Shown: piece after piece, positions 1,273-21,922 of the stretch
How positions within the stretch are numbered: the stretch's first letter is position 1
Layout: every line of letters starts with the position of its first letter
Virus record (IMG/VR): IMGVR_UViG_2537562020_000008
Strand: one strand, 5' to 3'
Length of the DNA: 22,406 nt
From: a virus
Lineage: Duplodnaviria > Heunggongvirae > Uroviricota > Caudoviricetes
Translations under genes and position numbers: made by a program
The notes under the pieces: generated by a model
What the model saw: the letters and a program-made list of their open reading frames with translations, nothing else
Databases searched by the model: none
What the model was told of the DNA's origin: nothing

Positions 1273-1554
1273 TTACTGCCAAGCCGCAAACACCTGTCCC
1301 GGCTCATTTCCCAGTTCAGGCGATGGCGGCGGTTTTCCATCCCGTCTATCCGGAGGAAACAACACGATCTCCACTGAAGCAGGTGCCGACGTTGGTTTCG
1401 GCAGACGACGTAACTGCTCAACTATTGCTGCGCACGCCGCGCTCTGGAATTTTCGCCCCGCCGCGCTTATCAGGCTCTTACCAGCAAACGCCCCTTTGTT
1501 GGGGTGTCGCCAGTACGTGTTCACGCTGGGCGGAAAAGGCAGGATCAGCTTCAT
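1273..1554 (-). pseudogene. rusA: RusA-family Holliday-junction resolvase, apparently truncated at the C-terminus by the IS66-family insertion
   Basis: N-terminal MKLILPFPPSVNTYWR and ...FPPDRR resemble RusA (LPWPPSNNRYYR ... PDRRRRD). After DRR the sequence becomes a Pro/Gly-rich tail (DGKPPPSPELGNEPGQVFAAWQ) lying where the IS end is expected. Confidence 0.5.
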
Positions 1555-1877
1555 ACTTTCAGGTCCCTCTCATGTAACCAGTGGGTTGCACGCAGCCTTG
1601 CGTTTTCCTCACCGGCAAGCAGTGCGCGGATAATCCCGACCGCCTCGCTGTCGTCGTCCTTCCCCGCGGTATGAAGCGTTATCCCCCGGGCCACGCCACG
1701 CTTTATCGTGATGACGCCTTTTTTCTCCAGTGCGCGAAGATGCTCCACCGCTGCATTCACCGAACGGTATCCCAGCATGGTTGCCACCTCCTGATTGGTT
1801 GGCGGGAAGCCACGTTCTTTCTGATAAGAAATCAGCATATCCAGCACCTGCTGCTGGCATTGAGTTAACGTCGTCAT
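1551..1877 (-). CDS. LexA-like N-terminal DNA-binding domain protein (winged HTH), lacking the S24 peptidase domain
   Basis: 108 aa; TQCQQQVLDMLISYQKERGFPPTNQEVATMLGYRSVNAAVEHLRALEKKGVITI closely parallels the LexA N-terminal domain ([52 protein letters not shown]). ATGA-type overlaps with both neighbours. Confidence 0.6.
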   Translation of the reverse strand: MTTLTQCQQQVLDMLISYQKERGFPPTNQEVATMLGYRSVNAAVEHLRALEKKGVITIKRGVARGITLHTAGKDDDSEAVGIIRALLAGEENARLRATHWLHERDLKV

Positions 1878-2527
1878 GCCGCCATCTCCCTGACCAGTTT
1901 TTCCGCCTGCTGGCGAACCTGCGCCAGAAACGCCTCACCACATGCCTCAAGTTCATCGCGCCCGATGTAGCTGATTGCCGGTCCCTTCCAGGTCTTGTCA
2001 AAAACAGCAATAGCACCAGCGAAAAAAGCTCCTGTCGGTACCTGCTTCTCGTCTTTCGGGATAAACCAGACAGGCAGTTCAAAACCAATACGCCCGCGAA
2101 TAAAAGCAATATGATCTGCATCTTCCGGCCACCACACTTCGCTGGTGGCAGCTTTGATCAGGAAAACATAGCGCCCGCCCTTATCACGCATGGCACTGGC
2201 ATGTTTCATGATGTAACGCATGCCGGTGATGTATTGCCCCTCATGCTGACTGGCGCGGCTGTATGGGGGATTACCAAAGGCAGCACCTTTAAGCTCCGCA
2301 AGACGTTCTGACCAGTCATGCGCCAGCGCGTTGTCTTCCGCCGTGTAATACGCGGCACATTTGGCGTTATCACCGTCAGTGAACAGATCCAGAACAAACG
2401 GGCCAAACAGGGTGTTAATTCCCCAGAAAATGTTGTCCGGCGTGCGCCACTGATCGCCCACTTCCTTCAGTTCATGGGCTGGTTTGTTCCGCAGTTCCAC
2501 CAGCGCCTGGCAATATTTATTACTCAT
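1874..2527 (-). CDS. Phage-type DNA N-6-adenine methyltransferase (Dam family)
   Basis: Contains the NPPY catalytic motif (AAFGNPPYSR) in a context typical of phage Dam-like methyltransferases. Start taken at the ATG at 2527, which shares one nucleotide with the upstream gene stop (TAATG); a longer ORF to 2560 exists. Confidence 0.8.
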   Translation of the reverse strand: MSNKYCQALVELRNKPAHELKEVGDQWRTPDNIFWGINTLFGPFVLDLFTDGDNAKCAAYYTAEDNALAHDWSERLAELKGAAFGNPPYSRASQHEGQYITGMRYIMKHASAMRDKGGRYVFLIKAATSEVWWPEDADHIAFIRGRIGFELPVWFIPKDEKQVPTGAFFAGAIAVFDKTWKGPAISYIGRDELEACGEAFLAQVRQQAEKLVREMAA

Positions 2528-3021
2528 TAAGCCCCCACGTAATTCCCTGACAGATACCACTCTTCACCCGATGCAGCGCGCTTGCTGCTTTTCCGTAAGC
2601 ACCGCTCACGACGCGTCAGAAAATTGTTTCGTTCTGGCTGGGAGTGGCTTTCACGGAATGCCGCCATCCACACGGTTGCAGCACGACGGTATAAGCCCCT
2701 GGACTCCAGTTCTTCCGCCTGGCGGGTCAGGCACAAAATCACACGGGGATCGTTAGTGCCGACATAGAAATTGCGCACAGGTCTGGTTTCACGAACTGGT
2801 TGTGGTTCCGGTTCCTGCGCTCTCTCAGTCAGGCGCGGGAAATGTCTGCGTGTATCTCCTTCACAACGGTGAGCCACACGCCCACTCTGACGTAACTTGC
2901 TTGCTGACTGCAGAACGCGCTGCCGTGAGTAACCGGCAAAAGCATCCGCAATATCTCCGGAAGTACAGCCCGGATGGGCTTCAATGAATTTCTGAACGTC
3001 ATTCAAAAGACTCATGCTCAC
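2527..3021 (-). CDS. Prophage regulatory protein: N-terminal winged-helix-like region and C-terminal PerC-like motif (family uncertain)
   Basis: 164 aa; C-terminal AEELESRGLYRRAATVWMAAF recalls the PerC/Pch signature from memory. GTGA overlap with the upstream replication gene. Confidence 0.45.
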   Translation of the reverse strand: MSMSLLNDVQKFIEAHPGCTSGDIADAFAGYSRQRVLQSASKLRQSGRVAHRCEGDTRRHFPRLTERAQEPEPQPVRETRPVRNFYVGTNDPRVILCLTRQAEELESRGLYRRAATVWMAAFRESHSQPERNNFLTRRERCLRKSSKRAASGEEWYLSGNYVGA

Positions 3022-3959
3022 CCCCTGAATCCTGCCGGGATCTGGCTGTAGTCCACGTTGTCGTAACTGGCTTTGAAGTACGGGTCTTCGCGTTTTTCGG
3101 TGTACGTGCTGACGGACGGCGATAAGCGCAGGGAAAGCTCATCCCATTTTTCCCGCAGCTTCGACGGGCTGAGCACGTTACGGCACCAGAACGGATCGCG
3201 ACTGACGCGGCTGTACATCTCGCAGATTTGTTTATGAGTACGACCATCCTGCACACACATCAGGCGAATTTCGTTTGCCCAGGCTGTCCAGTTCGGTTCT
3301 TTGGGACGAACCACCTCGCCGTCACATTCGGCGGCCTGCTCGTACAGGGCGATGATTTTTTTCCAGAGCCACTGTGCGCAGGTCAAATCATCCTGCGTTC
3401 CCCACTGGCGCTTTTTAGGGCTGAATACAACCGCATCAGGATGGCGAGTTAAAAACTCCTGTTCAGCCGTCTGCGTGTCCGGTTGCGAAGCGTCCGGACG
3501 AGAAGTTTTTTTATCTGACGGATCATGTTTTGATTTTACTGACGGATCCCCGCCAGATTCTGACGGGTGAAAACCCGCTTTTTTGCCAGATTTCGACGCA
3601 TCAAATTTTGACGGGTCAGATTTTGATGCGTCAGATTTTGACGGGTCAGAATCTGACAGTTGAGAAAATGCCGCTGCCTGAAGCTTCGCAACGTTAAGCT
3701 GATAAACATTCGACGCATTGCGGTTACCCTGGCGACGCGCCTTACGCGTTAACCAGCCTTCTGCTTCCAGCCGTGCGATAGCCGTTCTGACGGTACTCAT
3801 CCCCGCGCCAATCTGACGGGCAATGGTTTCAATTGATGGCCAGCACACCCCTTCGTCATTACTGAAATCAGCCAGGCGGGCCATAATTGCCACGCTGGAT
3901 AATTTCATGCCTGACGCTGCGCAACCATCCCATACATAGCCGGTTAATTTAGTGCTCAT
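3018..3959 (-). CDS. Phage replication initiation protein (lambda O-like organiser: N-terminal HTH, repeat-rich linker, C-terminal domain)
   Basis: 313 aa; N-terminal HTH (WPSIETIARQIGAGMSTVRTAIARLEAEGWLTR); central repeats SDSDPSKSDASKSDPSKFDASKS encoded by the iteron DNA; sits downstream of cro and the CII-like gene as in lambdoid phages. Confidence 0.75.
   Translation of the reverse strand: MSTKLTGYVWDGCAASGMKLSSVAIMARLADFSNDEGVCWPSIETIARQIGAGMSTVRTAIARLEAEGWLTRKARRQGNRNASNVYQLNVAKLQAAAFSQLSDSDPSKSDASKSDPSKFDASKSGKKAGFHPSESGGDPSVKSKHDPSDKKTSRPDASQPDTQTAEQEFLTRHPDAVVFSPKKRQWGTQDDLTCAQWLWKKIIALYEQAAECDGEVVRPKEPNWTAWANEIRLMCVQDGRTHKQICEMYSRVSRDPFWCRNVLSPSKLREKWDELSLRLSPSVSTYTEKREDPYFKASYDNVDYSQIPAGFRG
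3513..3664. repeat. Iteron array (about 8 copies of a ~15-bp unit, core TGACGG/TGATGCG) inside the replication gene; putative phage origin
   Basis: Seen directly: attttgacgggtcag / attttgatgcgtcag / attttgacgggtcag / aatctgacagttgag in tandem at 3605..3664, with more degenerate copies at 3513..3604 and an A/T-rich stretch at about 3500..3512. Confidence 0.7.
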
Positions 3960-3968: not shown

Positions 3969-4307
3969 CTATTTCCCTGAATTTACGACGAAACTGTTCG
4001 AGCGGACTGAAGCACTCATGCTCATAGCCTTCGCGGAGGTAGATAACCCGTTGTGTTTCCGGTTCCCAACGAATGACTCTGACGGGCACTCCGTAGTGAT
4101 CTTTGAACCAGCGGTTAACTTGTCGCAAAGGACTGTCTCCTTCTGCCGGTTGAAATCACCCACAGCCCACTCTGCAAAGCTGTGGGTTACAATTTCCCTG
4201 TCACCTGGTACATTTACTGCATAGCAATACTCCACCTTCGCTTTTCCACCCGGTACAGGAAGCGCAATCAGTTGCGAGCGACGGTAGTGTGTTGTTAAAC
4301 TGTTCAT
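3969..4307 (-). CDS. Hypothetical prophage protein (112 aa)
   Basis: ATGA overlap with the upstream CII-like gene supports translation. An alternative frame with a good RBS and TTG start near 4127 also exists, so the gene model is uncertain. Confidence 0.4.
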
Positions 4308-4855
4308 GCGTTAGTTTCTCCACAGTCACGACACGCCACGGCGCCCGGAGCTGCACACTCGCGGGCGTCATTACTTTCTGAAATGCAAAAGATTTTGTAG
4401 ACCAGTGCTGCATGCTCCTGCAGCTTCGAAATTGAGAGATATAGCTCGTCGTTAATTGCAGTTTTCTCATGCGGTTCCACTACACCGTCTTCGATTGCTG
4501 AACGAATCTGTTTTGAATAACTGCCGATCTGTTCAATGACCTCCAGCAGGCGTTGGTTGATATCGGCGTTGTCCACATCCTCGACATCAGGAAGAGACAC
4601 AAAGACGCCATTTGCAGACTGCGCCACAGCGTCAGCAATGAAGTGAGTTCCACCAGCACGTTGCAAAATCATTGCCCATCCCAGCGGGAAAATCTGATCG
4701 CCATCGGCACGAAGGCGGTTAAATAATGCGTTCTCTGTTACATCCAGCCAGTCAGCAGCTTCAGCGTACCCCCCCGGCAACGCTGCGATAGTTTTTCTGA
4801 CAGCTTTCACGTACCACTCAGGCTGTTTTTCTACTTTCCAGTGATGCTTACCCAC
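4304..4855 (-). CDS. Phage regulatory protein, CII-like (CP76 family) - tentative
   Basis: 183 aa immediately downstream of cro in the rightward operon; overall pattern ([35 protein letters not shown]...) resembles CP76-type CII regulators as I recall them. Confidence 0.5.
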
Positions 4856-5108
4856 GGTTCACCTCCTGTTCCTGTGGTTTAAACCCATTCTGGTTTTGGC
4901 TAGATTGAAAACGTGCCGGATAAAGAATCTGCATTTCGCTGACTTCACCCTTAAAAAAATTGGCTAAACGTTCTGCAAGCTCGATAGATGGAATCTGCTC
5001 CAGCCTCTCAATACGACTCAACGTCGCTGGATTGACTTGAACACCCGCAGCAACATGCTGCAAAGTGAAACCATGCGCCTTACGCACATTTCGTAATGGT
5101 GATTGCAT
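4848..5108 (-). CDS. cro: Cro-like HTH (XRE-family) repressor
   Basis: 86 aa; HTH motif GFTLQHVAAGVQVNPATLSRIERLEQIPSIELAERLANFF; divergent from the cI-like gene across an operator-rich 97-bp spacer. Confidence 0.8.
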   Translation of the reverse strand: MQSPLRNVRKAHGFTLQHVAAGVQVNPATLSRIERLEQIPSIELAERLANFFKGEVSEMQILYPARFQSSQNQNGFKPQEQEVNRG

Positions 5109-5205: not shown

Positions 5206-5898
5206 ATGAACATAGGAAACCGAGTCAGACAACTTCGCCAAGCGAAGAACATGAAAATCGCCGATCTCGCTGAAGCGATAGGAGTAGATGCGGCGAACAT
5301 CTCGCGCTTAGAAACGGGTAAGCAAAAACAATTTACCGAACAAACACTGAGTAATATTGCCAAGAGCTTAGGTGTTGATATTGCTGATCTCTTTACCTCT
5401 GCCCACAAAAGTAATACTGTATATAAAAACAGTAATAATGAGGATGTTGCGCAGGTGAAGGATGTGTTCCGTATTGAAATGCTGGATATCAGTGCCAGTG
5501 CGGGAAATGGCCTTATCCAGGGCGGTGATGTCATTGATGTGATTCATGCCATCGAATACAGAACTGATAATGCTGTATCAATGTTCGGCGGACGACCAGC
5601 CAATCACATCAAAGTTATCAACGTTCGTGGGGACAGTATGTGTCCAACCATTGAGCCCGGAGATCTCATCTTCGTTGATGTCAGCATCAATCAGTTTGAT
5701 GGTGATGGTATATATGTCTTTGGTTTTGATGACAAAATATACGTTAAAAGACTTCAAATGATTCCTGACAAACTGCTGGTGATTTCTGATAACCAGATTT
5801 ACCGTGAATGGGGAATTACTAGCGAAAACGAACACCGATTCATGGTCTTTGGAAAGGTCTTAATCAGTCAGTCGCAAACCCTTAAGAGACATAATTAA
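5206..5898 (+). CDS. cI: cI-like prophage repressor (N-terminal XRE HTH + C-terminal LexA-like S24 peptidase domain)
   Basis: 230 aa; HTH (MKIADLAEAIGVDAANISRLETGK) and C-terminal S24-type region (VRGDSMCPTIEPGDLIFVD ... IYVKRL). Confidence 0.9.
   Translation: MNIGNRVRQLRQAKNMKIADLAEAIGVDAANISRLETGKQKQFTEQTLSNIAKSLGVDIADLFTSAHKSNTVYKNSNNEDVAQVKDVFRIEMLDISASAGNGLIQGGDVIDVIHAIEYRTDNAVSMFGGRPANHIKVINVRGDSMCPTIEPGDLIFVDVSINQFDGDGIYVFGFDDKIYVKRLQMIPDKLLVISDNQIYREWGITSENEHRFMVFGKVLISQSQTLKRHN
5415..5434. promoter_or_regulatory. Near-consensus SOS (LexA) box embedded in the cI coding sequence
   Basis: Seen directly: TACTGTATATAAAAACAGTA versus consensus TACTGTATATATATACAGTA; CTGT-N8-ACAG core intact. 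Confidence 0.5.
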
Positions 5899-8337: not shown

Positions 8338-8465
8338 TTTCATTACTGCAAATGCCCCTGCGGGGGCATTTATGGAAACGTAATTAACTCAATAATCGCC
8401 TGATGGCGAGGGTTTTCTTTAACCAAAATTCAGCGCGGTGCAGCGCATATAAAGTGGAGAACAAA

Positions 8466-9002
8466 ATGTCATTTATTAAAACTTTTTCCGGGAAGCATTT
8501 TTATTATGACAAGATAAATAAAGACGACATCGTTATTAACGATATCGCGTTTTCCCTTTCAAATATCTGTCGCTTTGCCGGTCATCTTTCGCACTTCTAC
8601 AGCGTCGCCCAACATGCGGTTCTTTGCAGCCAGCTGGTGCCGCAGGAATTTGCTTTTGAAGCGTTAATGCATGATGCAACAGAAGCGTATTGCCAGGACA
8701 TTCCCGCACCACTGAAACGCCTTCTTCCTGACTATAAACGGATGGAAGAAAAAATAGACGCCGTAATCCGTGAGAAATACGGGTTACCTCCTGTTATGAG
8801 CACGCCAGTGAAATATGCCGATCTCATCATGCTGGCAACCGAACGCCGCGATCTCGGGCTTGATGATGGCTCTTTCTGGCCTGTACTGGAAGGTATCCCG
8901 GCAACAGAGATGTTCAACGTGATTCCACTGGCACCGGGCCATGCCTACGGGATGTTTATGGAACGCTTTAACGAGTTATCGGAGTTACGCAAATGCGCAT
9001 GA
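8466..9002 (+). CDS. yfdR: YfdR-like HD-domain protein (5'-deoxynucleotidase family)
   Basis: 178 aa from the ATG at 8466 (RBS GGAGAA); HD-like motif region (FAGHLSHFYSVAQHA ... ALMHDATEAY). The ORF track extends upstream to 8403. Confidence 0.7.
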   Translation: MSFIKTFSGKHFYYDKINKDDIVINDIAFSLSNICRFAGHLSHFYSVAQHAVLCSQLVPQEFAFEALMHDATEAYCQDIPAPLKRLLPDYKRMEEKIDAVIREKYGLPPVMSTPVKYADLIMLATERRDLGLDDGSFWPVLEGIPATEMFNVIPLAPGHAYGMFMERFNELSELRKCA

Positions 9003-9660: not shown

Positions 9661-10010
9661 TGGAGCCATACAGCCTCACACTCGATGAGGCCTGTCATTT
9701 TCTCAAGATATCCAGACCGACTGCCATTAACTGGATACGCACAGGGCGTCTTCAGGCAACACGCAAAGATCCCACTAAGAATAAATCTCCTTACCTCACA
9801 ACACGACAAGCCTGCATTGCGGCTCTTCAGTCTCCGCTGCATACTGTCCAGGTGAGCGCGGGTGATGGCATAACAGAGGAAAGAAAATGTCACTCTTCCG
9901 CAGAGGTGAAATATGGTACGCCAGTTTCACATTGCCGAACGGTAAAAGATTTAAACAGTCTCTTGGAACAAAGGACAAAAGGCAGGCGACAGAACTCCAT
10001 GACAAGCTAA
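9660..10010 (+). CDS. xis: Excisionase (P22 Xis-like HTH)
   Basis: [40 protein letters not shown]... matches the P22-type Xis pattern; start shares a nucleotide with the yfdT stop (TAATG); 3' end overlaps the int start. Confidence 0.75.
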
Positions 10011-11050
10011 AGGCTGAAGCATGGCGGGTCAGCAAACTTGGTGAAATACCTGATATAACGTTCGAGGAAGCGTGTGTCAGGTGGCTTGAAGAGAAAGCAC
10101 ATAAAAAATCACTGGACGATGACAAAAGCCGGATCGGATTCTGGCTTCAACATTTCGCAGGAATGCAACTAAGAGACATTACTGAATCAAAAATTTATTC
10201 AGCAATGCAGAAAATGACGAACCGGCGTCATGAGGAAAACTGGAAACTCAGGGCAGAAGCATGCAGAAAAAAAGGGAAACCTGTTCCAGAATACACGCCA
10301 AAACCAGCGTCCGTTGCAACGAAGGCTACGCATCTTTCATTTATAAAGGCCCTACTAAGAGCCGCAGAGCGTGAATGGAAAATGCTGGATAAGGCACCAA
10401 TTATTAAAGTGCCTCAACCAAAGAATAAACGGATCCGCTGGCTGGAGCCCCATGAAGCACAAAGGCTGATTGATGAATGTCCGGAGCCATTAAAGTCTGT
10501 TGTTGAATTTGCACTGGCAACAGGCTTAAGACGCTCGAACATCATCAACCTTGAATGGCAACAAATAGATATGCAGCGCCGGGTGGCATGGATAAACCCG
10601 GAAGAGAGTAAATCAAACCGCGCAATCGGCGTTGCGCTGAATGATACTGCATGTCGCGTTTTGAAAAAACAAATCGGGAATCATCACCGTTGGGTATTTG
10701 TGTACAAGGAAAGCTGTACCAAACCAGACGGAACGAAAGCGCCAACAGTAAGGAAGATGCGGTATGACGCAAACACAGCCTGGAAAGCAGCGCTGAGACG
10801 GGCTGGTATTGATGATTTCAGATTTCACGACTTGAGACACACCTGGGCAAGTTGGCTGGTTCAAGCCGGAGTCCCGTTGTCAGTGTTACAGGAAATGGGA
10901 GGCTGGGAGTCTATCGAAATGGTTCGTCGATATGCTCACCTTGCACCTAATCACCTTACCGAACACGCACGGCAAATAGACTCGATCCTGAACCCATCGG
11001 TCCCAAATTCGTCCCAGTCAAAAAATAAGGAAGGTACTAATGATGTGTAA
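9887..11050 (+). CDS. int: Tyrosine integrase, P22-type
   Basis: 387 aa; [47 protein letters not shown]... and C-terminal [41 protein letters not shown] (catalytic R..HxxR..Y); abuts a tRNA-Thr 3' fragment. Confidence 0.9.
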
Positions 11051-11113: not shown

Positions 11114-11201
11114 TAAATTGATCTTGTAAAATCAATACCTATCGAATTTAAATGGATTTTTTGCCACAATATTGCCACAGTTCGTTAGGAATCAGACAGA
11201 A

Positions 11202-12275
11202 ATGGCGACTATACGCAAACGTGGTAACTACCAATGGGAAGCTCAAATCCGTAAACGTGGTTTTCCCTCTCAAACCAAAACCTTTAACACCAAAGTAGAA
11301 GCAGAAGCTTGGGCCAAAATGATCGAGTCAGAAATGGCGAGAGGAGTTTGGCTTAGCCGCAGCGAAGCGGAATCTACGACATTGTATGAAGCCCTAACGC
11401 GATATGAAAAAGAGATTGTTCCCGACAAAAAAGGGGCAGTGCAAGACCGATCATTGGTGCGGATACTAAAAGGCACTCAGCTGGCGAAAAACTATATGGC
11501 CAGCATCAGGAGTGCCGATGTCGCCAAGCTGAGAGATGAATGGTTGAAAATCTATGCTCCTGCAACCGTTTTAAGGCGTTTGGCCTTACTTTCTCATGTA
11601 TTCAATGTTTCGCGGAAAGAATGGGGCATGGAGAGCCTGCTGAACCCCGTAGAGGCCATTCGTAAACCCCAACCCAAGAACTCCAGGACCAGACGCCTAG
11701 AAGCGCTGCCTGTAGTTTCTGAGAAAACCGGTGTTACGTCAGGAAAGCAAATAGCCAACGAGATCGAACATATCATCGCCGCAACACATTCATTAGTATT
11801 GCCAGCAATCATTCTTCTGGCGTTAGAGACAGCCATGCGCCGTAGCGAAATCGCAGAGCTTCGATGGCGCTTTATCGATCTTGATCGGCGAGTTGCACAT
11901 CTGCCGGATACTAAGAATGGTAATGCCCGCGATGTCCCTTTATCAACGAAAGCCATTACGATACTGTCCAGTCTCAAGGAACATTCTAAGCCAGCTGCTG
12001 ATAAGGTTTTTGATATGCGTGCAGACGCGATTACCCGAGCTTTTGACCGAGCTGTAAAACGAGCCAGAGAACGATACGAGAAAACAAACTCATTATGTGA
12101 TGAATCTTTCCTTAAAGATTTAAGATTTCATGACCTTCGACATGAAGCAACTTCTCGACTTGCTGAAATTTTCCCTATGCATGAACTAACCAAAATTACA
12201 GGACATAAAGATCCAAGAATGCTAATGCGGTATTATCATCCAAAAGCTGAAGATTTGGCGTTAAAGTTGAAATAA
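11202..12275 (+). CDS. Second tyrosine recombinase/integrase (island integrase; a longer ORF begins at 11172)
   Basis: RBS AGGAA before the ATG at 11202; C-terminal LRFHDLRHEATSRL ... LMRYYH catalytic signature. Confidence 0.8.
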   Translation: MATIRKRGNYQWEAQIRKRGFPSQTKTFNTKVEAEAWAKMIESEMARGVWLSRSEAESTTLYEALTRYEKEIVPDKKGAVQDRSLVRILKGTQLAKNYMASIRSADVAKLRDEWLKIYAPATVLRRLALLSHVFNVSRKEWGMESLLNPVEAIRKPQPKNSRTRRLEALPVVSEKTGVTSGKQIANEIEHIIAATHSLVLPAIILLALETAMRRSEIAELRWRFIDLDRRVAHLPDTKNGNARDVPLSTKAITILSSLKEHSKPAADKVFDMRADAITRAFDRAVKRARERYEKTNSLCDESFLKDLRFHDLRHEATSRLAEIFPMHELTKITGHKDPRMLMRYYHPKAEDLALKLK

Positions 12276-12284
12276 GGACGTTGT

Positions 12285-13061
12285 ATGGATTATAAAAATA
12301 AGTTAGTTGATGCATCACCAAAATTAAACAACCCTCAACTATTGGCTATAATATACTTAATACCTTTTGGATACTTGATTGTAGAAAACCCATTATGGCT
12401 AGAAAATATATACATTGCCGCTCCAATTTTCCTATCATCTATAGCTTTATTAACCAGTGTATACATAGGATATCGTGATTTATTAAATAAAGTATTTAAT
12501 AATGCAGTAGTTAAATGGGGCGTAACTGGCTTTACATATTCCGTATGCTTATGGATCGCAAAGTTTAAGCTTGACATAGCTTATGGTATAGTCCCAGAAA
12601 ACCTTAATTACTCGACATTAGCTTATGCTTTCATGCTCTCATTTCCAATAGGGGCAATGATTTGTGCAATTACAGTCTATATATACATATTTTTGCGAGA
12701 TGTATCCCCAGCAAAAATAGTAATATCCTCTATGATTTCAGTATATATTGGAAGCTTGGCTCAACATCATATACAGATGAACAATCTTCCTGAAAAAATA
12801 ATATTAATAGGACTTATAATTATGGTCCCCTATAACATGGTCAATTTAGCTAGTTCATTAGTTATTAAAAGGAAATTTAATTTTAATCGTTTAGTATCAG
12901 GCTTATCCCTTTTTGCTGTGTCAGTTGCTCTTTTTATTATTAGCATGACAGCAATGAAATACATTGAAAGATTTCAAGAAAAGTTTATTTTTCTCGATGC
13001 AAGAACATCTACGACATGTGGTAGCTCAGAAAGCAAATCTCTTTATATTGAAAAAAAATGA
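12285..13061 (+). CDS. Polytopic inner-membrane protein, unknown function
   Basis: 258 aa with several long hydrophobic segments; starts 10 nt after the integrase stop with an AAGGA RBS; AT-rich codon usage. Confidence 0.6.
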   Translation: MDYKNKLVDASPKLNNPQLLAIIYLIPFGYLIVENPLWLENIYIAAPIFLSSIALLTSVYIGYRDLLNKVFNNAVVKWGVTGFTYSVCLWIAKFKLDIAYGIVPENLNYSTLAYAFMLSFPIGAMICAITVYIYIFLRDVSPAKIVISSMISVYIGSLAQHHIQMNNLPEKIILIGLIIMVPYNMVNLASSLVIKRKFNFNRLVSGLSLFAVSVALFIISMTAMKYIERFQEKFIFLDARTSTTCGSSESKSLYIEKK

Positions 13062-13162
13062 AAATCAGTGTTATAAAATATCAGGAAATAAATTCTCGGA
13101 GTTAAGACTAACTCTTGTAGATAAAAACATCTTGAATATAAATAATAAAGGCACTTCAACTT

Positions 13163-13390
13163 ATGAACAAAAATAACCCTGCTAATTCATTTTCTATAGA
13201 AGCAAGGAAAGAAGCTTTTCGGAGAGCTGAAGCCAGTCTTTTTTTATCAAGTAAAGATCCCAAAGGCTCCTCATTTTTTAATGAAATAAAAACTAAGGTA
13301 ATCAATGGAGAGCTAACCTATGAAGAGGCAAAGAGAGAAGTATTAAATTATCACATTGAACAATCTAAAAATCAAAATAAAAGAGGCTAA
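13163..13390 (+). CDS. Small VbhA-like (Fic-antitoxin fold) protein - tentative; canonical inhibitory Glu motif not evident
   Basis: 75 aa; RRAEASLFLSS ... VINGELTYEEAKREVLNYH parallels VbhA (ARNALASQRLEG ... VVVGELETSDVIKDLMERI) by eye. Confidence 0.4.
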   Translation: MNKNNPANSFSIEARKEAFRRAEASLFLSSKDPKGSSFFNEIKTKVINGELTYEEAKREVLNYHIEQSKNQNKRG

Positions 13391-13406
13391 CATTTAGTTA
13401 GCCTCT
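13382..13406 (-). terminator. Hairpin terminator for the minus-strand 70-aa gene, overlapping the 3' end of the plus-strand small gene
   Basis: AGAGGCTAAC-attta-GTTAGCCTCT perfect 10-bp stem; a U-rich tract follows on the minus-strand transcript. Confidence 0.5.
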
Positions 13407-13411
13407 TCTCA

Positions 13412-13624
13412 CTAGTGAGCTATTTTATAGTCCCTTAATGCATTTTTAAGTAACTCCGTTTGCTCATCAGCATCATCATAATTATAAATTCCCGTAGCAG
13501 AATAATACTCTTCGATGCATAGAATATTTATCAATGGTTCACAAATCTCTTTAATAAAATCCTTGTTGTTATCGGCAAAAATAATTTTTATTCCTTCCAA
13601 AACAAAGCTATTATAATCAGCCAT
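13412..13624 (-). CDS. Hypothetical small acidic protein (70 aa)
   Basis: Strong RBS (AGGAGGTGGATAATG); acidic composition; no family recognised. Confidence 0.55.
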   Translation of the reverse strand: MADYNSFVLEGIKIIFADNNKDFIKEICEPLINILCIEEYYSATGIYNYDDADEQTELLKNALRDYKIAH

Positions 13625-13693
13625 TATCCACCTCCTTACAGGTGTTTAGTGGAAGCGTCAGTTAACGTTACCGCGCTAACTGACGCGCCTAAA

Positions 13694-15097
13694 TCAAGAT
13701 TTTTTACTGCCAGTTAAACTATCACCCTCAAACTCATCCTGTTCGTGGTTAGTCTGACGATCGGCTGTGTGTTTACGTATTTGATTCGCTATTTCCCCAC
13801 CAACGGTCTGTTGTCTTCGGATAGTATTAGTACTTCCCTTCATCATCTGATACTCCGAAGCTCCGTTAGACAGCCCGCTCGCCATGTGAGAAGCCATGCG
13901 GCCAGCTCGTGAGAATGATGAAGCAAACCCCTGGCTTCCTCCGCTGACGCTACCTGTATTACTCCCTGCAGAAGAACCACCGGAACCGCCTGATGGTTGT
14001 CCTCCAGAAGTATCTACGGAACCGGTATCTTCCCCTCCGCCAAATCCTCCACCTGAACCACCTTTATCACCAGAACCAGATTCTTCGGCCATCGCCGCTT
14101 GTGCAGATTCAAATGCTGCTTTTAGAGCGGAAGCACCACCACTGACTTGAGCTGTAGCACTTATTGCCATTGCCCCAGCGCCACTGATTGCAGTAGTAGC
14201 AGCGCCAGTAATCATACCTGCTCCAAAACCACCGATCCCTTGTAAGGACGCTCCTCCAACAACGCCTGATAACAACAACGGTAATTTATTCGTCAATACT
14301 AAAAGAATAATTGACGCCAGAAGTAAAACAATAAGACTATTAAGATCAGGAATATCATTTTTAATAATAGAAAAATACTGATCTATAAATGATTGCCCAA
14401 TCCCAATGATTAATGTCATCGTAAATAACTGAATACCAATCGATAATACTGTGCGTAAGTAATTTATTGCTATATCAGAAGTCCATTTCGAGCCACCAAA
14501 CCCAAGCAAAATAACTCCTGCATAACACAACACCCATGCAGAAACTAACATTATTAGCATATTTATCGCGATAAGCGCCATTACTACTAATACTATTATC
14601 GCGACGGTTATCATAATGGTCGAAATCATTGGAGACCAAATTGATGCTGCTGAACTGACCTTTGTTAATATCACAAATGCCATATCCACTATGCTGGAGG
14701 GTGAAATACCAGTACTTGTTCCTAAAGCATTTGCTGCAAGTTGTCTCATTGAGTTAATTATAGATTGTGATATGGCTGGGCCGTTGATTAAAAGATAATA
14801 AAAAAAACCAATCACGGCAAAAAAACGAACTATTTCTGCAAGTGCACTGATTAAACCTTCCCCTTGCATCGCCAACATACCAAATGTCCAAACCATACTT
14901 ATTAATACCAACCCCCAGAAGAGCCAATTTGCATAATCACCAATTACTAATGACCATGTGCTGGCTACTTGCTGAAACTTATCTAATAACGTATCAAGTA
15001 ATCCGCTACTATCTAATTGACCAGCATAAGCATTTACAGAAAACAAAAAAAACATTCCTAAAAAAGTGAGCTTGCTTACTATTCTCATAATTACCAT
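13694..15097 (-). CDS. trbL: TrbL/VirB6-like type IV secretion protein (polytopic, Gly/Ser-rich C-terminal tail)
   Basis: 467 aa; multiple TM segments then a low-complexity tail (GSGGGFGGGEDTGSVDTSGGQPSGGSGGSS); directly follows trbJ and a trbK-like ORF, as in P-type Tra2 clusters. Alternative start at 15088. Confidence 0.75.
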   Translation of the reverse strand: MVIMRIVSKLTFLGMFFLFSVNAYAGQLDSSGLLDTLLDKFQQVASTWSLVIGDYANWLFWGLVLISMVWTFGMLAMQGEGLISALAEIVRFFAVIGFFYYLLINGPAISQSIINSMRQLAANALGTSTGISPSSIVDMAFVILTKVSSAASIWSPMISTIMITVAIIVLVVMALIAINMLIMLVSAWVLCYAGVILLGFGGSKWTSDIAINYLRTVLSIGIQLFTMTLIIGIGQSFIDQYFSIIKNDIPDLNSLIVLLLASIILLVLTNKLPLLLSGVVGGASLQGIGGFGAGMITGAATTAISGAGAMAISATAQVSGGASALKAAFESAQAAMAEESGSGDKGGSGGGFGGGEDTGSVDTSGGQPSGGSGGSSAGSNTGSVSGGSQGFASSFSRAGRMASHMASGLSNGASEYQMMKGSTNTIRRQQTVGGEIANQIRKHTADRQTNHEQDEFEGDSLTGSKKS

Positions 15098-15264
15098 TCT
15101 CGCTTAGGGCTAGGATTGTTATTGCCACGCAGGGCACATTTATCGTAGTTATGTTCGTTCAATTTATTCTCTGGCGTCGATAAACAATCTTCATCTTTTT
15201 TATCGCAAGAGCATAGAATTAATGAAATTATTAGAATAAAAATGACCAAAAGTTTATCTTTCAT
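15091..15264 (-). CDS. trbK: TrbK-like small lipoprotein (entry exclusion), 57 aa; below the ORF-track size cutoff
   Basis: Own translation: MKDKLLVIFILIISLILCSCDKKDEDCLSTPENKLNEHNYDKCALRGNNNPSPKREW; signal peptide with lipobox-like LCSC; lies between trbJ and trbL. Confidence 0.5.
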   Translation of the reverse strand: MKDKLLVIFILIISLILCSCDKKDEDCLSTPENKLNEHNYDKCALRGNNNPSPKREW

Positions 15265-15275
15265 TCAGCTCTCCC

Positions 15276-16070
15276 TCACCAAATTCGCTTCGGGCTTGGT
15301 GTGTTCTCGCCAGCTAACGCTTTTTCATCAGCGACTATTTGTTGGGCTTCTTTATCAGCCTCAGCCTGTGCCAGTGTTGCTGCAGCGTTTTGCTGAGCTA
15401 CCAGAAGCGAGCGGATTTGCAGCAACTGGTTCGTTTGAGCACTGGCAAGCTGGTTAGCGGCCTGAATAGCTTCCATTTGCCCTTGTGCGCCGGTTGCCTG
15501 CGTTTGCAAATCTGCAAGGTTGTCAGCATCGCTTTGCAGTGTTTCCTGCTGTTCGTCAAGAGCCTTAAATACAGCGTCATTGGCCTTTTTACGTGCCTCA
15601 GAGCTGTTCTGTTCAGCTTTGCGCAGTGCGCTAATTTCATCCGCAGTACATTCAACATTACTGTTAAAGCACGGTGATGAGCGGTAGTAATTCACGTCCT
15701 GATAACGTTTCAGATATGAATCAAGACTCCCGGCCTGGTTTTTGTAGTAATTTAGGGTGTCCTGCGCCTGCAACAATTTGTTGATGGTCGAATTGGCCTG
15801 ATCCCAGATATAGGCTGCAGGTGCGACTGTATTTTTGAGCATGTTTTCATACTGCTGCAGCTGCGTCTGGTACTGCTGGATCTGTTTTGCCACAGCCTGA
15901 ACGTTGTTGACTGCGCTGATTGTGGTCTGCACCACATTAGTACCATCGATTACAGGGATACCGGCTGTCGCCGGTAATGCCATGATGGACGCCAGGAAGG
16001 AAGCAGCTAATGATTTTTTAGCTGCTAAAATCCCTCTCAGTGATGAAAATACTCGGAGCATTAACTTCAT
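15276..16070 (-). CDS. trbJ: TrbJ/VirB5-like type IV secretion protein
   Basis: Signal peptide then GIPVIDGTNVVQTTISAVNNVQAVAKQIQQYQTQLQQYENMLKNT, matching the TrbJ signature as recalled; Gln-rich coiled-coil C-terminus. Confidence 0.8.
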   Translation of the reverse strand: MKLMLRVFSSLRGILAAKKSLAASFLASIMALPATAGIPVIDGTNVVQTTISAVNNVQAVAKQIQQYQTQLQQYENMLKNTVAPAAYIWDQANSTINKLLQAQDTLNYYKNQAGSLDSYLKRYQDVNYYRSSPCFNSNVECTADEISALRKAEQNSSEARKKANDAVFKALDEQQETLQSDADNLADLQTQATGAQGQMEAIQAANQLASAQTNQLLQIRSLLVAQQNAAATLAQAEADKEAQQIVADEKALAGENTPSPKRIW

Positions 16071-16151
16071 TTGCCCACCTCAAATTTAACTGATTATTAA
16101 TATTGAAAACTCGTACTTTTAACAAATACAGATATTTAGGGAACCATAAAT

Positions 16152-16517
16152 TTATTTATTCAAGATTCTATCCATAATATTTCTTAGTTCTTGTCTGGTT
16201 GATTCTATTTTAGCAAGCAACGTTTTTATCAATGAGGGTGAAAAATCAACTGTGCGTGGATCGTTAGCTAACCACAGTTTAAGTAACCCACCAAGTCGAC
16301 CAAGATCAGCATTTACTCGGCTAAGCTCTACAACCTGTTCAATATCTACCATAGACTCAACCTGATAACCCATTGCTACTTTACGAATGAAACTCGCTAC
16401 ACTTAAGCCGGATGCTTCTGCATTATCCTGGATTTGCGCTTTTTCATCTGGCAAACAATAAACTTTAATTGGTGTACTATTTTTTCTAGTCTGAGAAACG
16501 GTCATATCATTCTCCAT
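16152..16517 (-). CDS. mobC: MobC-like relaxosome accessory protein (ribbon-helix-helix)
   Basis: 121 aa; RHH-like N-terminus (KVYCLPDEKAQIQDNAEASGLSVASFIRKVAMG) and DLGRLGGLLKLWL resembling the MobC-family conserved segment. Confidence 0.55.
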   Translation of the reverse strand: MENDMTVSQTRKNSTPIKVYCLPDEKAQIQDNAEASGLSVASFIRKVAMGYQVESMVDIEQVVELSRVNADLGRLGGLLKLWLANDPRTVDFSPSLIKTLLAKIESTRQELRNIMDRILNK

Positions 16518-16584
16518 ACAGGCGGTAGCCGATCAGCCTCGCAGAGCAGGACTCCGTTGAGCAGCTCAGCTGCGAATAAGGGAA

Positions 16585-16635
16585 GGTAAAGTAGAAGCAC
16601 CGTTTACGGTGGGCCTACTTTACATATCCTGCCCT
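16585..16635. other. oriT-like site: 9-bp inverted repeat around an inner palindrome, followed by a MOBP-type nick motif ATCCTGC
   Basis: Seen directly: GTAAAGTAG-aagcaccgtttacggtgggc-CTACTTTAC then acatATCCTGCcc at 16626..16632; lies ~70 bp upstream of mobC. Confidence 0.4.
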
Positions 16636-16787
16636 ACATTTGCCGTTGTGAATCTGTGTACGTATTGTGTATTTCTGTGTACTCAGTGTGTTTTCCTAAA
16701 GCATTTGTGCAGGATTAGTAGTGTAAAAATGTGCAGCATATGTGTTTATTGGAATGGAAATTATTTGAATGCCCCTAAGAGATATTT

Positions 16788-17081
16788 TTATTCTCGCGGC
16801 TTGGGTTTTGGCGGCCTGCCACGTTTCCTTTGACATCTATTTATCTCTTTCGCTATATCGTCATTTTCTGTCTTTGACTCAACAGATTTATCTATCCAGT
16901 CCTTAACATCTTCTCTACGCCAGAGAAGACGTTTATTACCGGGAAGACGGCATCTTGGTGGAAGACATTTTGGATTTCGCGTTGCATCACTGCGGATACT
17001 TTTTACAGTTTTCTTTAATGCAAAAGCCAACTCTTCAACGGTTATAAGTTCTGGCATAACTGATTTCATCGAAGAACCCAT
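16788..17081 (-). CDS. Excisionase/AlpA-like HTH DNA-binding protein with basic AT-hook-like tail
   Basis: 97 aa; LITVEELAFALKKTVKSIRSDATRNPKCLPPRCRLPGNKRLLWRREDVKDWI is an AlpA/Xis-type HTH pattern; C-terminal RKRGRPPKPKPRE. Confidence 0.55.
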   Translation of the reverse strand: MGSSMKSVMPELITVEELAFALKKTVKSIRSDATRNPKCLPPRCRLPGNKRLLWRREDVKDWIDKSVESKTENDDIAKEINRCQRKRGRPPKPKPRE

Positions 17082-17103
17082 CTCTCAGTAGAAATTTGAG
17101 GAT

Positions 17104-17131
17104 TTTAGCGGCTAAAATTTTAGCCGCTAAA
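17104..17131. promoter_or_regulatory. Perfect 28-bp palindrome just upstream of the excisionase-like gene (operator or bidirectional hairpin)
   Basis: Seen directly: TTTAGCGGCTAAAA|TTTTAGCCGCTAAA. Confidence 0.45.
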
Positions 17132-17382
17132 GTTTGCTAACCAACGTTATGAATTGAGAATAATTAAAACTTACTGGCAAAAAGAATAATGTCAACAGGG
17201 TTTTTATTCATCGGATTCTTACTCCATATGAAATTGGTTTTATTGACCGATTTCTGAATGACACTAAGGTTTTAATAATTCCTTTAATCTTTTTGGTTAT
17301 ATAAAAGGTTAAAGATCAGGTTAGAGAGGTGTGGAAAAGCGATATATTCACTTGTTTACTATGACAATTTTAAATTATATCC

Positions 17383-17448
17383 GTACCTCAAATGTCATGA
17401 AAGCGTACCTCATATGTCATAAAGGCGTACCTCATATGTCATATAATA
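17383..17448. repeat. Three tandem copies of a 22-bp unit (GTACCTCATATGTCAT core)
   Basis: Seen directly: gtacctcaaatgtcatgaaagc / gtacctcatatgtcataaaggc / gtacctcatatgtcatataata. Confidence 0.85.
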
Positions 17449-17528
17449 AAAAATAAGCAAACAAGTTATACACAATATTATTAACAGAATCTGTGGATAA
17501 ATACACAGATTATACATGATAAAATAGA

Positions 17529-17734
17529 TTGTTTAGCTAAACTAAATAACAATAAATAAAATGAAACAAAATGTAAATAACAGGGGGGGTGTAGGTGACT
17601 TATAAATTTGGTTAGCTAACCTTTATAAGAAACACTGTTTGTAAATGATTCATTTCTGACAACGGATATATCGAATTTGAGTAAGAAAAACACTTCAACT
17701 AACCTTACTCTCTGATTTGTTTAGCTAAACAAAT
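17529..17734. promoter_or_regulatory. Three palindromes with a shared TTAGCTAA core upstream of the HigA-like gene (putative operators)
   Basis: Seen directly: ttgtttagctaaac (17529..17542), ggttagctaacc (17610..17621), atttgtttagctaaacaaat (17715..17734, perfect 20 bp). Confidence 0.5.
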
Positions 17735-17775
17735 TACTGTAAGGAATCCGATGACGTTAAAAAAAAGGGGGGGAT

Positions 17776-18033
17776 ATGAGGACAATAAATGCTGCACCTT
17801 CAACTGTCGGAGAGATTTTATACGAAGAATTCTTGAAACCATTGGATATGCCTCCCGCAAGACTTGCTGAACTGATGGATACATCATATGAAAAAATTTG
17901 GGAAATAATTAAAAATGAGCGAAATATAACTCTTGAAGAAGCTATTCAACTCTCGATAATTTTCAATACAGATGCATCTTTTTGGGTGAAACTGCAAGAG
18001 CTACATGAGGCATGGTTTAATAAACAAAAGTAA
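17776..18033 (+). CDS. HigA-like HTH (XRE-family antitoxin-type) regulator, no cognate toxin ORF detected
   Basis: 85 aa; VGEILYEEFLKPLDMPPARLAELMDTSYEKIWEIIKNERNITLEEAIQLSIIFNTDASFWVKLQ matches the HigA/VapI pattern; preceded by an A8G7 homopolymer pair. Confidence 0.65.
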   Translation: MRTINAAPSTVGEILYEEFLKPLDMPPARLAELMDTSYEKIWEIIKNERNITLEEAIQLSIIFNTDASFWVKLQELHEAWFNKQK

Positions 18034-18233
18034 GGTTATTCAATTAGATTACTTAGTACTAATACATAATTTGCTTTGAATAATACTCATACATTTCTAA
18101 CGACTTATTAAAGCGATAATATACTCGGACGACTGAGGATTAAAAAATCCGATCCTTGATGATGGGAACCTGCCATGACTAGGTAAGTCATTTTAGCAGT
18201 GGTACAGGCGACATTAAAAGCCGATATAAAGAA

Positions 18234-18266
18234 GCCCGACTGGTAAGATCGGGCCTTTTTATTTTT
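18234..18266 (+). terminator. Rho-independent terminator
   Basis: GCCCGA-ctggtaaga-TCGGGC hairpin followed by CTTTTTATTTTT. Confidence 0.6.
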
Positions 18267-18688
18267 CCACTCTGGCCTGAATAGAACATCCTACATTAGA
18301 CGTTAAGATCTTACATCTAATTATCCGAAACTACTAATGGATGCGTAGTTGCATTTGACCTGACCGCCCATTTGCGGGTTACTCTACCATCGCCAATAAA
18401 GTCCGGCTACTCGAATTCGGAAGTATTAGGCTATAGGTCATAAACCTGAATAACTGCTATGTGCTGAAGCGGATAAAGCTGACATCATTATGCACCAATC
18501 AACTCGGTGTAAGTCAGCTAGTTGGTGATGGAGTGACTTGTCAATAGTTGTAGCCCCTACCAGTGCATCGGAGATTCTTGAGTGTAACCTTAGTTGCATT
18601 AATCAGAAGTAAAGGAAACGTACTATGAAAATCAGTACTCTTAATCAAGAGATCCCCCGTTCTCTCACGGAAAAGGGGGATTGAATTT

Positions 18689-19951: not shown

Positions 19952-20198
19952 AAATATTTTATTAATCCTATAAATTATAAGTTAAGTATTAGTCTTTTAT
20001 CTACAAACCAAAGCCACTTTACTACTTTACCTAACTGCACTTTAAACAATCATAAGTTCTTTTTTTTTAAAAAGGTAGTCCAAAGATACCAATTTATTCA
20101 ATATCAACGAGAATTCGAGACTCCTATGTGAGTAAAAAACTATGAGCTTCATGCCATGCTTTCAATAAATGTCTTCAGTTACCCATAAATTTACTGGA

Positions 20199-20726
20199 TT
20201 AACAATTTGTAGTCTTTCCGACCAAATTACCGCGCGCAGTGTGACCCCATACTTTAGAGGTCACCTTATCTCTTTCCACTAGTTGTTTACGGTGCATCAA
20301 ATCGGCAAGCAGTATTGAAACAAAGAACATGAATTTTGTTTTGGGAGTATTAGGAACATCTTTGGGTCCAAGCCAAGGTAGCTGCTCCAGTTGATTTTGT
20401 ATTTTGGGTGTTGCGAAGCTAACACCATTCCAACTATGCCCAAAAGCATTTCTAATGCTACGCAGTGTGTTTAGTTCTTTGTATTCGTGTTCCATTATCA
20501 GTCCTAACGCATATGCTAAGCCTGTTCTAGCAGCAAAAGATGATAAAGGCGCTGTTGCACCATTCAGTAGACCTTTAGCTACTTTGTCATTTAACAGGTG
20601 AGCCTGGATGATCTCGGATAACCACTCATCGAAAATGGATGCTGCTATTAGAACAGAGCCACGATCTGATTCTTTATTTAGTTCGGACAAAAATTGACCG
20701 AGTTCAATTTGGGTTTTATCACTCAC
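20199..20726 (-). CDS. Uncharacterised 175-aa alpha-helical protein with R-N-x3-H (HEPN-type) motif; by-eye resemblance to MtlR/DUF4145-like domains
   Basis: RNAFGH at aa 92..97 in ...LAYALGLIMEHEYKELNTLRSIRNAFGHSW; by-eye resemblance to the MtlR helical domain. Confidence 0.55.
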   Translation of the reverse strand: MSDKTQIELGQFLSELNKESDRGSVLIAASIFDEWLSEIIQAHLLNDKVAKGLLNGATAPLSSFAARTGLAYALGLIMEHEYKELNTLRSIRNAFGHSWNGVSFATPKIQNQLEQLPWLGPKDVPNTPKTKFMFFVSILLADLMHRKQLVERDKVTSKVWGHTARGNLVGKTTNC

Positions 20727-21214
20727 AGACTCTGGAACTCCTTTCTCAAAAATTCAACATGAGGACGCTTCGGTCGCACATCAATCTTAACCATTAGATT
20801 ATGAAATTGTGTTAGGTCTGGGTCAAACTATGAACAAAAACAGAAAAAATTATTGTGACGTTATTTAGGGGGACCTACAATGACACATTTTAAACAATTA
20901 CTTTAATATCAATAAATTGGATCGTATTACTGTGTTCCTATTATTGGTTTAGCTCAGCTTGTCGCTCACAGCGGACCTTCAGCTCGATAGCAAGTCCGCT
21001 CCGTTGGAGTGCCAGATGCGCTCTAAATTTGATGGCTAGTATTGAAGAGATACTTGGGCATCATGGTTATGGTGTAAATACCGTCTGTGATACCCGCAGA
21101 GGTGCTAGGTTTAGGCACTGAGAAGGATACATTGAACATGAATTCAGAGTGATGTAACACAAGTCATAGAAAATTAGTGATTTATATTGAAAAGGGGGTT
21201 ATTTTATTAAAGCA

Positions 21215-21234: not shown

Positions 21235-21240
21235 CTTATT

Positions 21241-21918: not shown

Positions 21919-21922
21919 GCTC

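Follow-up and report, generated by a model that had tools for sequence, protein, structure and literature searches.

A probable iteron-type replication origin within the initiator gene of SfII/SfIV-like lambdoid prophages

Introduction

The viral record IMGVR_UViG_2537562020_000008 (Caudoviricetes; 22,406 nucleotides, the whole of which is called the window here) includes the early region of a prophage of lambdoid type, which shares 98% identity with the Shigella phages SfII and SfIV. Its replication initiator gene, an open reading frame (ORF) of 313 amino acids (aa) at 3018-3959 on the minus strand, recognised through Pfam HTH_36 and PHROG 391, carries a short tandem repeat in its middle part. 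The question raised by this locus is whether the repeat serves as DNA, providing the protein-binding sites of a replication origin, or is only the trace of a repetitive peptide, and how replication could proceed from a module in which no helicase loader gene follows the initiator. To answer it, a comparison that took in ~170 related loci was carried out, and the linker DNA was read in 80 fetched genomic loci encoding relatives of the initiator. From these comparisons we consider it quite probable that the repeats are the initiator's own iterons, and that together with a conserved pair of GATC sites and an A/T-rich patch they make up the origin of SfII/SfIV-type prophages.

Results

The repeat array inside the initiator gene

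Tandem Repeats Finder reported a 15-nt unit with 4.3 copies and 81% matches at 3587-3650, and a second repeat search agreed with it. Taken together with the conservation of synonymous sites across genera, the repeat searches delimit four head-to-tail 15-bp iterons at 3592-3651 (minus strand), within which TTTTGACGGGTCAGA is present at 3607-3621 and 3637-3651 and TTTTGATGCGTCAGA at 3622-3636. On the coding strand the unit reads TCT GAC NNN TCA AAA; written as TCTGA-N4-TCA(A/G)A, it has the dyad symmetry of a 14-bp palindrome, though an imperfect one, which in the K-coding units is one mismatch short of perfection. The palindromic pattern TCTGAYNNNTCARA is matched with 0 mismatches at 3607, 3622 and 3637 and with 1-2 mismatches at 3514, 3559, 3592 and 3652, and a half-site lies at 3539-3552. 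The match at 3652 corresponds to a flanking partial iteron (3652-3665, minus strand), which forms with the first unit a perfect palindrome, TCAGATTCTGA (codons L-S-D-S-D), at the edge of the array; the array start CTGTCAGATTCTGAC recurs in most of the clade-1 loci listed. At 3559-3572 (minus strand) a further iteron-like site, TTTCACCCGTCAGA, stands apart from the array; after it comes TCAGAATCTGG (codons P-S-E-S-G), which is one mismatch from a palindrome, and across 46 non-redundant genes the invariance of the codons TTT, GAA and TCT is 96-100%. Two candidate registers for binding can be written from these copies, TCTGA-N4-TCAGA or TCAGA-W-TCTGA.

All the repeat copies (3514-3665) are inside the ORF, between the parts coding for the N-domain and the C-domain, and the G+C minimum of the gene adjoins them, which bears out the first-pass annotation in its description of repeats lying within an O-like gene beside an A/T-rich stretch. 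The same annotation had pointed out that this DNA encodes an SDPSK/SDASK linker, and the translated array does read ..SDSDPSKSDASKSDPSKFDASKS.., a run of SD(P/A)SK peptide repeats. Its count of about eight iterons was liberal: the repeats are real, and besides the four contiguous units there are three or four copies that are degenerate or dispersed.

When the rest of the 22-kb window was searched for TCTGAYNNNTCARA with no more than one mismatch, a single further match was obtained, at 16873; no second cluster of sites was found in the window, and none in the cro-cI promoter region. Since the sites are confined to the array within the prophage, they do not constitute a typical operator. A search for DnaA boxes found none in or beside the array, the nearest one-mismatch boxes being located at 4316 and 4569, and this result neither supports nor excludes that the candidate origin may depend on DnaA. 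The small ORFs that run over the repeat in other frames (3530-3697, plus strand; 3536-3718, minus strand) were rejected as repeat artefacts, and a reading as RNA structure was dropped, Rfam having given no match in the initiator gene.

Selection on the DNA rather than on the peptide

For the codon test, conserved amino-acid columns were compared in 46 genes whose N-domains are less than 95% identical in nucleotide sequence (72% on average). The major codon accounted for a fraction of 0.54 over the 58 columns of the N-domain and of 0.93 over the 13 columns of the linker segment F.P.ESGGDPSV.S..DP, 8 of which reached 1.00. In addition, 107 units were picked by the peptide SDxSK alone, so that their codon usage could be set against that of the same residues elsewhere in the same genes: Ser1 is encoded by TCT in 90% of the units and in 8.6% elsewhere, Ser4 by TCA in 92% versus 17.6%, and Lys by AAA in 100% versus 62%, with the middle codon of the unit occurring in 18 forms.

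Substantial variation in the type of repeat was observed among the relatives. Clade 2 (L008-L012, L065) carries TTGA-SSSS-TCAA at a 15-bp period, and its unit is found in both orientations in the same frame, as TTGACCCCTCAA (IDPSN) and as the reverse complement TTGAGGGGTCAA (VEGST), while clade 3 (L018) has a perfect 14-bp palindrome, TCTGAACGTTCAGA. The C-domain of phage mEp460 is 97-99% identical to that of the window, shared from SSRPDASQPD onward, and is joined to an unrelated N-domain; in the same place its linker harbors five 23-nt repeats spaced at 23 bp and, after them, three 12-nt repeats rich in A/T, and because a 23-bp period is out of frame it cannot be a peptide repeat. Clade-1 N-domains, for their part, keep their unit with either a lambda-O-type or a Phg_2220_C C-domain. 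The repeat type thus varies with the N-terminal DNA-binding domain, as is expected of iterons and marks a DNA element. Judged by these codon and domain comparisons, selection acts on the repeat as DNA and not on the peptide, and the SD(P/A)SK repeat looks like a by-product in a predicted-disordered linker, tolerated because the sites stay in frame at 15 bp and because the linker is predicted to be disordered.

The A/T-rich patch, the GATC pair and the conserved joint

An A/T-rich patch with a G+C fraction of 0.30, the lowest of the gene, is located at 3500-3539 and is a candidate DNA-unwinding element; in gene orientation it lies 3′ of the iterons, on the same side as in lambda. A conserved pair, GATCCGTCAG...N15...GATCCGTCAG (3514-3552, minus strand), places two GATC (Dam) sites, at 3521-3524 and 3545-3548, on the flanks of an A/T-rich spacer, and its copy at 3514-3527 is itself iteron-like. 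Within this segment (3514-3552) the 46 non-redundant genes always encode Asp by GAT, Ser by TCA and Val by GTA; the Asp retained in the GATC segment is GAT, which makes GATC, whereas the Asp codon inside the array is mostly GAC. The GATCCGTCAG pair was also observed in clades 2 and 3, and all the HTH_36-type cassettes examined show the same order of the array, then GATCCGTCAG, ~15 A/T-rich bases and GATCC(G/A)TCAG. Over the window as a whole GATC is not enriched (65 sites against ~78 expected), and only the conserved pair is notable. A Dam-family methyltransferase gene often neighbours the initiator, both in the window and at other loci, and it is plausible from the sequence that the firing of the origin may be linked to methylation at the GATC pair.

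The joint at which N-domain/iteron cassettes are fused to the same C-domain is conserved as well, and reads ..CTTCTCGTCCGGACGCTTCGCAACCGGAC on the coding strand (3478-3506, minus strand). Its form after the A/T patch, ..TCTCGTCCGGACGCTTCGCAACCGGAC, has counterparts in three other loci (L086, ~3990-4010; L252, ~960-1000; L082, ~10780-10810). The joint segment was also found in clade 2, and lambda and phi80 contain in this position a segment, TCGTCCGAGAATTCTG, that is related to it.

Architecture of the initiator protein

The initiator matches Pfam HTH_36 with an E value of 4e-11 (42.9 bits against a cut-off of 25) and, over its full length, PHROG 391, 'replication initiation O-like' (E 1.6e-135), and it is 98-100% identical to the initiators of SfII and SfIV. 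An AlphaFold2 model, built with 29 homologues, predicts a winged-helix N-domain, a low-confidence linker, a helical C-domain and a floppy tail. The N-terminal winged-helix domain (aa 1-98; 3666-3959, minus strand), with a predicted local distance difference test (pLDDT) score of 70-87, is presumed to be the iteron-binding domain; the Pfam scan gave HTH_36, GntR and MarR-type matches only and did not find Phage_rep_O in it, and Foldseek returned only MarR/ArsR/TFE-type winged-helix proteins. The known winged-helix proteins of the MarR/ArsR type mostly bind palindromes as dimers. Residues 102-165, for which the repeats and the A/T patch code, have a pLDDT below 50 and are read as a disordered linker. 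A helical C-terminal domain is predicted for aa 186-280 (3120-3404, minus strand; pLDDT 81-97); it shows homology to lambda O in the C-terminal half of that protein (34.9% identity, residues 131-277, E 4e-18, tblastn) and to phi80 gp15 (35% identity, residues 167-278). Rep_3 was not found by the Pfam scan, and RP-C scored 17 bits, which is under its cut-off. Relatives of solved structure that were sought by sequence were set aside, as the N-domain gave weak MarR matches and the C-domain profile none.

A module without its own helicase loader

The first-pass annotation had stated that no P-like or DnaC-like gene follows the initiator, and had supposed that the module may be unusual or incomplete. 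The former statement is upheld, since the PerC-like and Dam-family genes come next and tblastn detected no P or DnaC homologue in the window. None was found in L001, L002 and L084-L086 either, nor in SfIV, mEp460, vB_EcoS-716R3 and Kp4872-1 within the fetched flanks of the initiator, and within 4 kb both P and DnaC are missing from the majority of the 80 genomic loci. Among the 58 coding sequences of the complete SfII genome is the same initiator, and none is annotated as a helicase, a loader or a primase. Both SfII and SfIV are reported to have been isolated as phages (PMC3772137, PMC3851460). As isolated phages carry the same loader-less module, which is shared by SfII, SfIV and mEp460, the word 'incomplete' is unsupported, and 'unusual' is apt relative to lambda only; a module that lacks a loader gene is normal and complete as it stands.

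The C-terminal tail and the loader partner

The initiator ends in the tail ..DYSQIPAGFRG (3021-3053, minus strand), which resembles the end of host DnaT, ..DSQIPPGFRG, with 8 of 9 positions identical between SQIPAGFRG and SQIPPGFRG. Escherichia coli DnaT, whose gene is directly upstream of dnaC, ends in ..SEPDSQIPPGFRG, and the homologue P0101 ends in ..ISEPDTEIPPGFRG, which is identical to DnaT at 14 of 20 positions (E 1e-7). Beyond the tail, no similarity of the initiator to DnaT was detected, the DnaT N-terminal and three-helix C-terminal domains included.

In a survey of tails, C-termini were aligned and the downstream genes typed. At loci with a lambda-P homologue, 8/8 initiators end in ..W.SPE.W(E/D).(T/V)L, even where the C-domain is of the Phg_2220_C type (L058); lambda O ends in ..NTDWIYGVDL. 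At loci with a DnaC homologue, 6/6 tails contain IP.GF, and the DnaC proteins there are 44-51% identical to that of E. coli. An independent sample of 80 viral contigs was fetched via a DnaC homologue, and the start of dnaC could be located in 77. The ORF abutting dnaC upstream ends in ..PD(T/S)(E/A)IPPGFRG in 74 of these 77 contigs, and the other three have no abutting upstream ORF, probably owing to the contig edge. At least four unrelated protein architectures were observed among the upstream ORFs with an IPPGFRG end. The loci bearing on tail and partner are the window (3021-3053), L083 (1979-2518), L087-L090 and L171-L250.

These alignments indicate that the type of initiator tail may predict the loader partner, W..SPE.WE.TL pointing to lambda-P and IPPGFRG to DnaC, and suggest that the window's tail, ..QIPAGFRG, could recruit host DnaC. 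Because the tail type matches the neighbouring loader gene, the tail would dock DnaC, and phages without a loader would use that of the host. We propose tentatively, as a possibility and not as the expected outcome, that IPxGFRG is a portable docking signal for DnaC (or DnaB-DnaC), common to host DnaT and to several phage initiator architectures that are unrelated to one another, and that SfII, SfIV and mEp460 mimic DnaT by means of it to capture the host loader; the W-x-S-P-E-x-W-E-x-T-L type of tail would likewise specify lambda-P partners. The IPxGFRG motif was not found in a DnaC-docking context in the literature searched, and the rule relating tail type to loader is a more novel lead than the origin itself.

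Variation of the array and its prevalence

The first-pass annotation had proposed comparing iteron number across related prophages, and the number does vary: one or two additional units were seen, with 0 to ~10 units overall, and the lengths of close-homologue proteins step by 5 residues (303, 313, 318 and 323). Copy number was counted in 80 viral contigs from a C-domain profile scan, whose C-domains are all ≥99% identical and which were therefore used for these counts and not for diversity; 60 have the window form, three have one extra unit and one has two, while 12 contain the mEp460 cassette. Of 5426 complete E. coli genomes, 2058 (38%) contain the origin segment, and 27 of the 30 matches sampled are ungapped at 281/281.

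The segment was also observed in K-12-lineage genomes near 2.47 Mb, for example at 2466779-2467059 of NZ_CP062242.1. One record labels the K-12-lineage copy 'phage replication protein O', and we take the copy to be probably the yfdO remnant of CPS-53. Many Enterobacterales prophages (L022-L081, e.g. L022 at 4001-4870) combine a clade-1 N-domain/iteron cassette with a Phg_2220_C C-domain, and in the L022-L081 loci checked the downstream gene encodes a Dam-family or MT-A70-like methyltransferase, not a loader.

Other genes of the window

The PerC-like gene (2527-3021, minus strand; Pfam PerC, PHROG 'transcriptional activator') occupies the place of lambda P and abuts the initiator gene, and it has no homology to a loader. 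It is followed by the gene of a phage Dam-family N6-adenine methyltransferase (1874-2560, minus strand; Pfam PF05869, E 1e-45), a LexA-DNA-binding-like gene (1551-1877, minus strand) and a short 93-aa ORF without a Pfam match at the place where SfII has rusA (1273-1554, minus strand). On the other side of the initiator are a 112-aa ORF of unassigned function (3969-4307, minus strand), a CII/CP76-like gene (4304-4855, minus strand) and cro (4848-5108, minus strand), and then cI (5206-5898, plus strand). The integrase gene at the other end of the prophage is located at 9887-11050.

By reading of the translations, the ORFs at 199-546 and 546-1223 look like components of an IS66-family transposase, and in view of these IS66-like ORFs (199-1223) the prophage seems to be interrupted by an insertion sequence. 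A YfbR-like HD-domain protein is encoded at 8403-9002, in the early-left operon, with a Pfam E value of 3.7e-05 that falls just under the cut-off; going by the family name alone, we suspect it to be kin of the cryptic-prophage protein YfdR. It is reported that YfdR binds DnaA and that the over-expressed yfdQ-yfdT gene cluster inhibits chromosomal initiation (PMC4776307). The part of the window past the prophage integrase (11172-22406) contains a second integrase, a TrbL/VirB6-like gene at 13694-15097 and Rfam matches to PtaRNA1 (13618-13690, plus strand) and traJ-II RNA (16535-16634, minus strand), which suggests that a conjugative or integrative element adjoins the prophage there.

Discussion

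The proposal made in the first-pass annotation, an origin inside the initiator gene in the manner of lambda, is favoured by the homology of the C-domain, the position of the repeats in the linker, the freezing of synonymous sites and the co-variation with the N-domain. From the gene order, transcription from the cro-side promoter after induction would yield the initiator. Its N-terminal winged helix, probably as a dimer, would then bind the 14-bp imperfect palindromes TCTGA-N4-TCA(G/A)A at their 15-bp period, a step to which the observed DNA-level selection and the co-variation of repeat and N-domain both point. The resulting nucleoprotein complex would destabilise the A/T patch at 3500-3539, and the bracketing GATC sites may tie firing to Dam. 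The lambda-O-type C-domain and the DnaT-like tail would finally recruit host DnaB-DnaC directly, so that a P or DnaC protein of the phage would be unneeded.

Several points weigh against this scheme. The patch at 3500-3539 is short and only 70% A+T, weaker than the tract of lambda, and the 15-bp period puts ~1.4 helical turns between sites, unlike the iterons of lambda and of plasmids. The homologues are related by descent, and the codon statistics are accordingly drawn from non-independent samples. The full-length homologues P0017, P0031 and P0069 have no tandem array and keep the flanking sites, which may mean that few sites suffice or that these prophages are defective. In the literature searched, no binding or replication experiment on this initiator family was found; the SfIV genome paper touches on the replication module in passing, and the papers on the Eru classes give no mechanism. 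The step involving host DnaC is a correlation, and the viral sequences sampled through DnaC are close relatives of one another (80-94% identity). Moreover, the published work consulted assigns no role to DnaT residues 154-179 (PMC4132743), and a 2026 preprimosome structure tentatively has the DnaT N-terminal domain recruit DnaB/DnaC (PMC13377028).

Could the array be nothing but a low-complexity protein linker produced by replication slippage, its DNA conservation being due to recent descent and homogenisation, with no function in cis? Such a history would fit a unit whose 15 bp make 5 codons in frame, a copy number that ranges from 0 to ~10 among close homologues, and a linker for which disorder, and with it tolerance of change, is predicted. 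However, the synonymous sites are frozen across genera though the N-domain has diverged to 72% nucleotide identity, and the DNA motif is still recognisable where single-base changes have altered the amino acid (K→E/N; S→F/P/Y/C). The clade 2 palindrome, moreover, is present in both orientations and encodes unrelated peptides, and the 23-bp repeats of mEp460 are out of frame in the same place, so that we regard the slippage explanation as very improbable.

If the repeats are true sites of the initiator, they might still serve autoregulation, copy control or the exclusion of related phages, with the origin elsewhere. Plasmid iterons also mediate handcuffing and autorepression, which speaks for such a role, and these sequence-only data give no sign of unwinding at 3500-3539. 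Cloned lambda ori sequences, too, are reported to inhibit related phages (PMC3349717, PMC4488673). Yet the window holds no other cluster of sites, the cro-cI promoter region included, and the position equals that of the lambda and phi80 origins, beside a homologous C-domain; the A/T patch with its invariant GATC sites adjoins the array, and N-domain, iterons and A/T patch are swapped together as one cassette. This use of the sites without an origin is in our view unlikely. It is more doubtful still that another protein binds them, whether a host factor, the CII-like protein or the PerC-like winged-helix protein encoded downstream. In favour of the last, its N-terminus weakly matches MarR and its gene abuts that of the initiator, but the repeat type follows the initiator N-domain, mEp460 combines the same PerC-like neighbour and C-domain with different repeats, and clade-1 arrays persist beside ParB-like, Dam, MT-A70-like or other next genes; a foreign binder is thus exceedingly improbable.

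The preferred reading, iterons of the initiator at an origin within its own gene, can be compared with known systems. The origins of lambda and of Shiga toxin (Stx) phages such as 933W and P27 lie in the middle of O and consist of repeated dyad sites, the iterons, followed by an AT-rich tract (PMC7466680). In the window, dyad sites are likewise repeated in mid-initiator gene and are followed by the candidate A/T patch, which is shorter and less A/T-rich than the tract of lambda. In the lambda linker sequence itself, four iterons and an A/T tract were observed at the corresponding place. Stx phages have 6 iterons against 4, with 13 extra residues (PMC7466680), and iteron number varies in the window family likewise with protein insertions, one or two more units adding 5 or 10 residues. 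Lambda differs from the window in its N-domain (Phage_rep_O against an HTH_36 winged helix), in its sites (19 bp and further apart, against 14-bp sites in a contiguous, in-frame 15-bp period), and in having a P gene and the tail ..DWIYGVDL, where the window has no P gene and the tail ..IPAGFRG; the invariant GATC pair in the A/T patch is a further difference. Gene 15 of phi80 encodes a homologous C-domain, and four annotated gp15 binding sites lie in its linker; however, these sites are ~15-16 nt long, spaced at 21 bp and unrelated in sequence, the N-domain is different, and the P-like gene 14 follows. In mEp460, where the initiator is named 'Primosomal protein I', the C-domain, the tail and the downstream PerC-like, Dam, LexA-like and RusA genes are the same and a loader is likewise absent, so that its unrelated N-domain with 23-nt repeats represents a natural swap revealing the cassette structure.

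Among more distant systems, the protein upstream of dnaC in the dnaT-dnaC operon and in Rac-type prophage pairs ends in ..PD..IPPGFRG, to which the window's tail is near-identical; DnaT is not sequence-specific and is without iterons, and a dnaC gene is absent from the window. Plasmid replicons of the Rep_3, RepA and pi types have iterons of ~17-22 bp, ~22 bp apart and outside rep, against 15 bp and inside the gene in the window. DopC and DopE are lambda O/P-like genes that became domesticated (Brezellec et al. 2017, PMC5509034), and DopC has an HTH_36 N-terminus and a DnaT-type C-terminal element, as does the window's initiator; it is, however, chromosomal, has a P-like partner, and iterons were sought in it and not found (PMC5509034), in contrast to the window with iterons and no P. 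The Eru classes of Stx-phage replication regions were considered and rejected as a match, Eru1-3 having different proteins (PMC8044961, PMC8951638), and the later Eru paper lists HTH-type regions without mechanism or iterons (PMC8951638).

Overall, the locus very probably represents an ordinary origin of lambda-like design, carried by a prophage family that is very common in E. coli and Shigella, and the window's candidate origin is a further member of the 'origin inside initiator gene' kind. A probable origin is thereby placed for a prophage family that includes the Shigella serotype-converting phages SfII and SfIV, and whose initiator gene is annotated as 'helix-turn-helix domain-containing protein' or 'primosomal protein'. 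The locus also provides a natural case of overlapping codes, in which an array of sites dictates a predicted-disordered linker, as seen from the synonymous sites, the flips of orientation and the domain swap. A testable hypothesis is also obtained of how phages lacking a loader, and perhaps host DnaT as well, could engage DnaC. The point at which DnaT hands over DnaB-DnaC was still unknown in the 2026 preprimosome paper (PMC13377028), and if the docking reading of the tail is true, the IPxGFRG element would locate that handover to the restart primosome.

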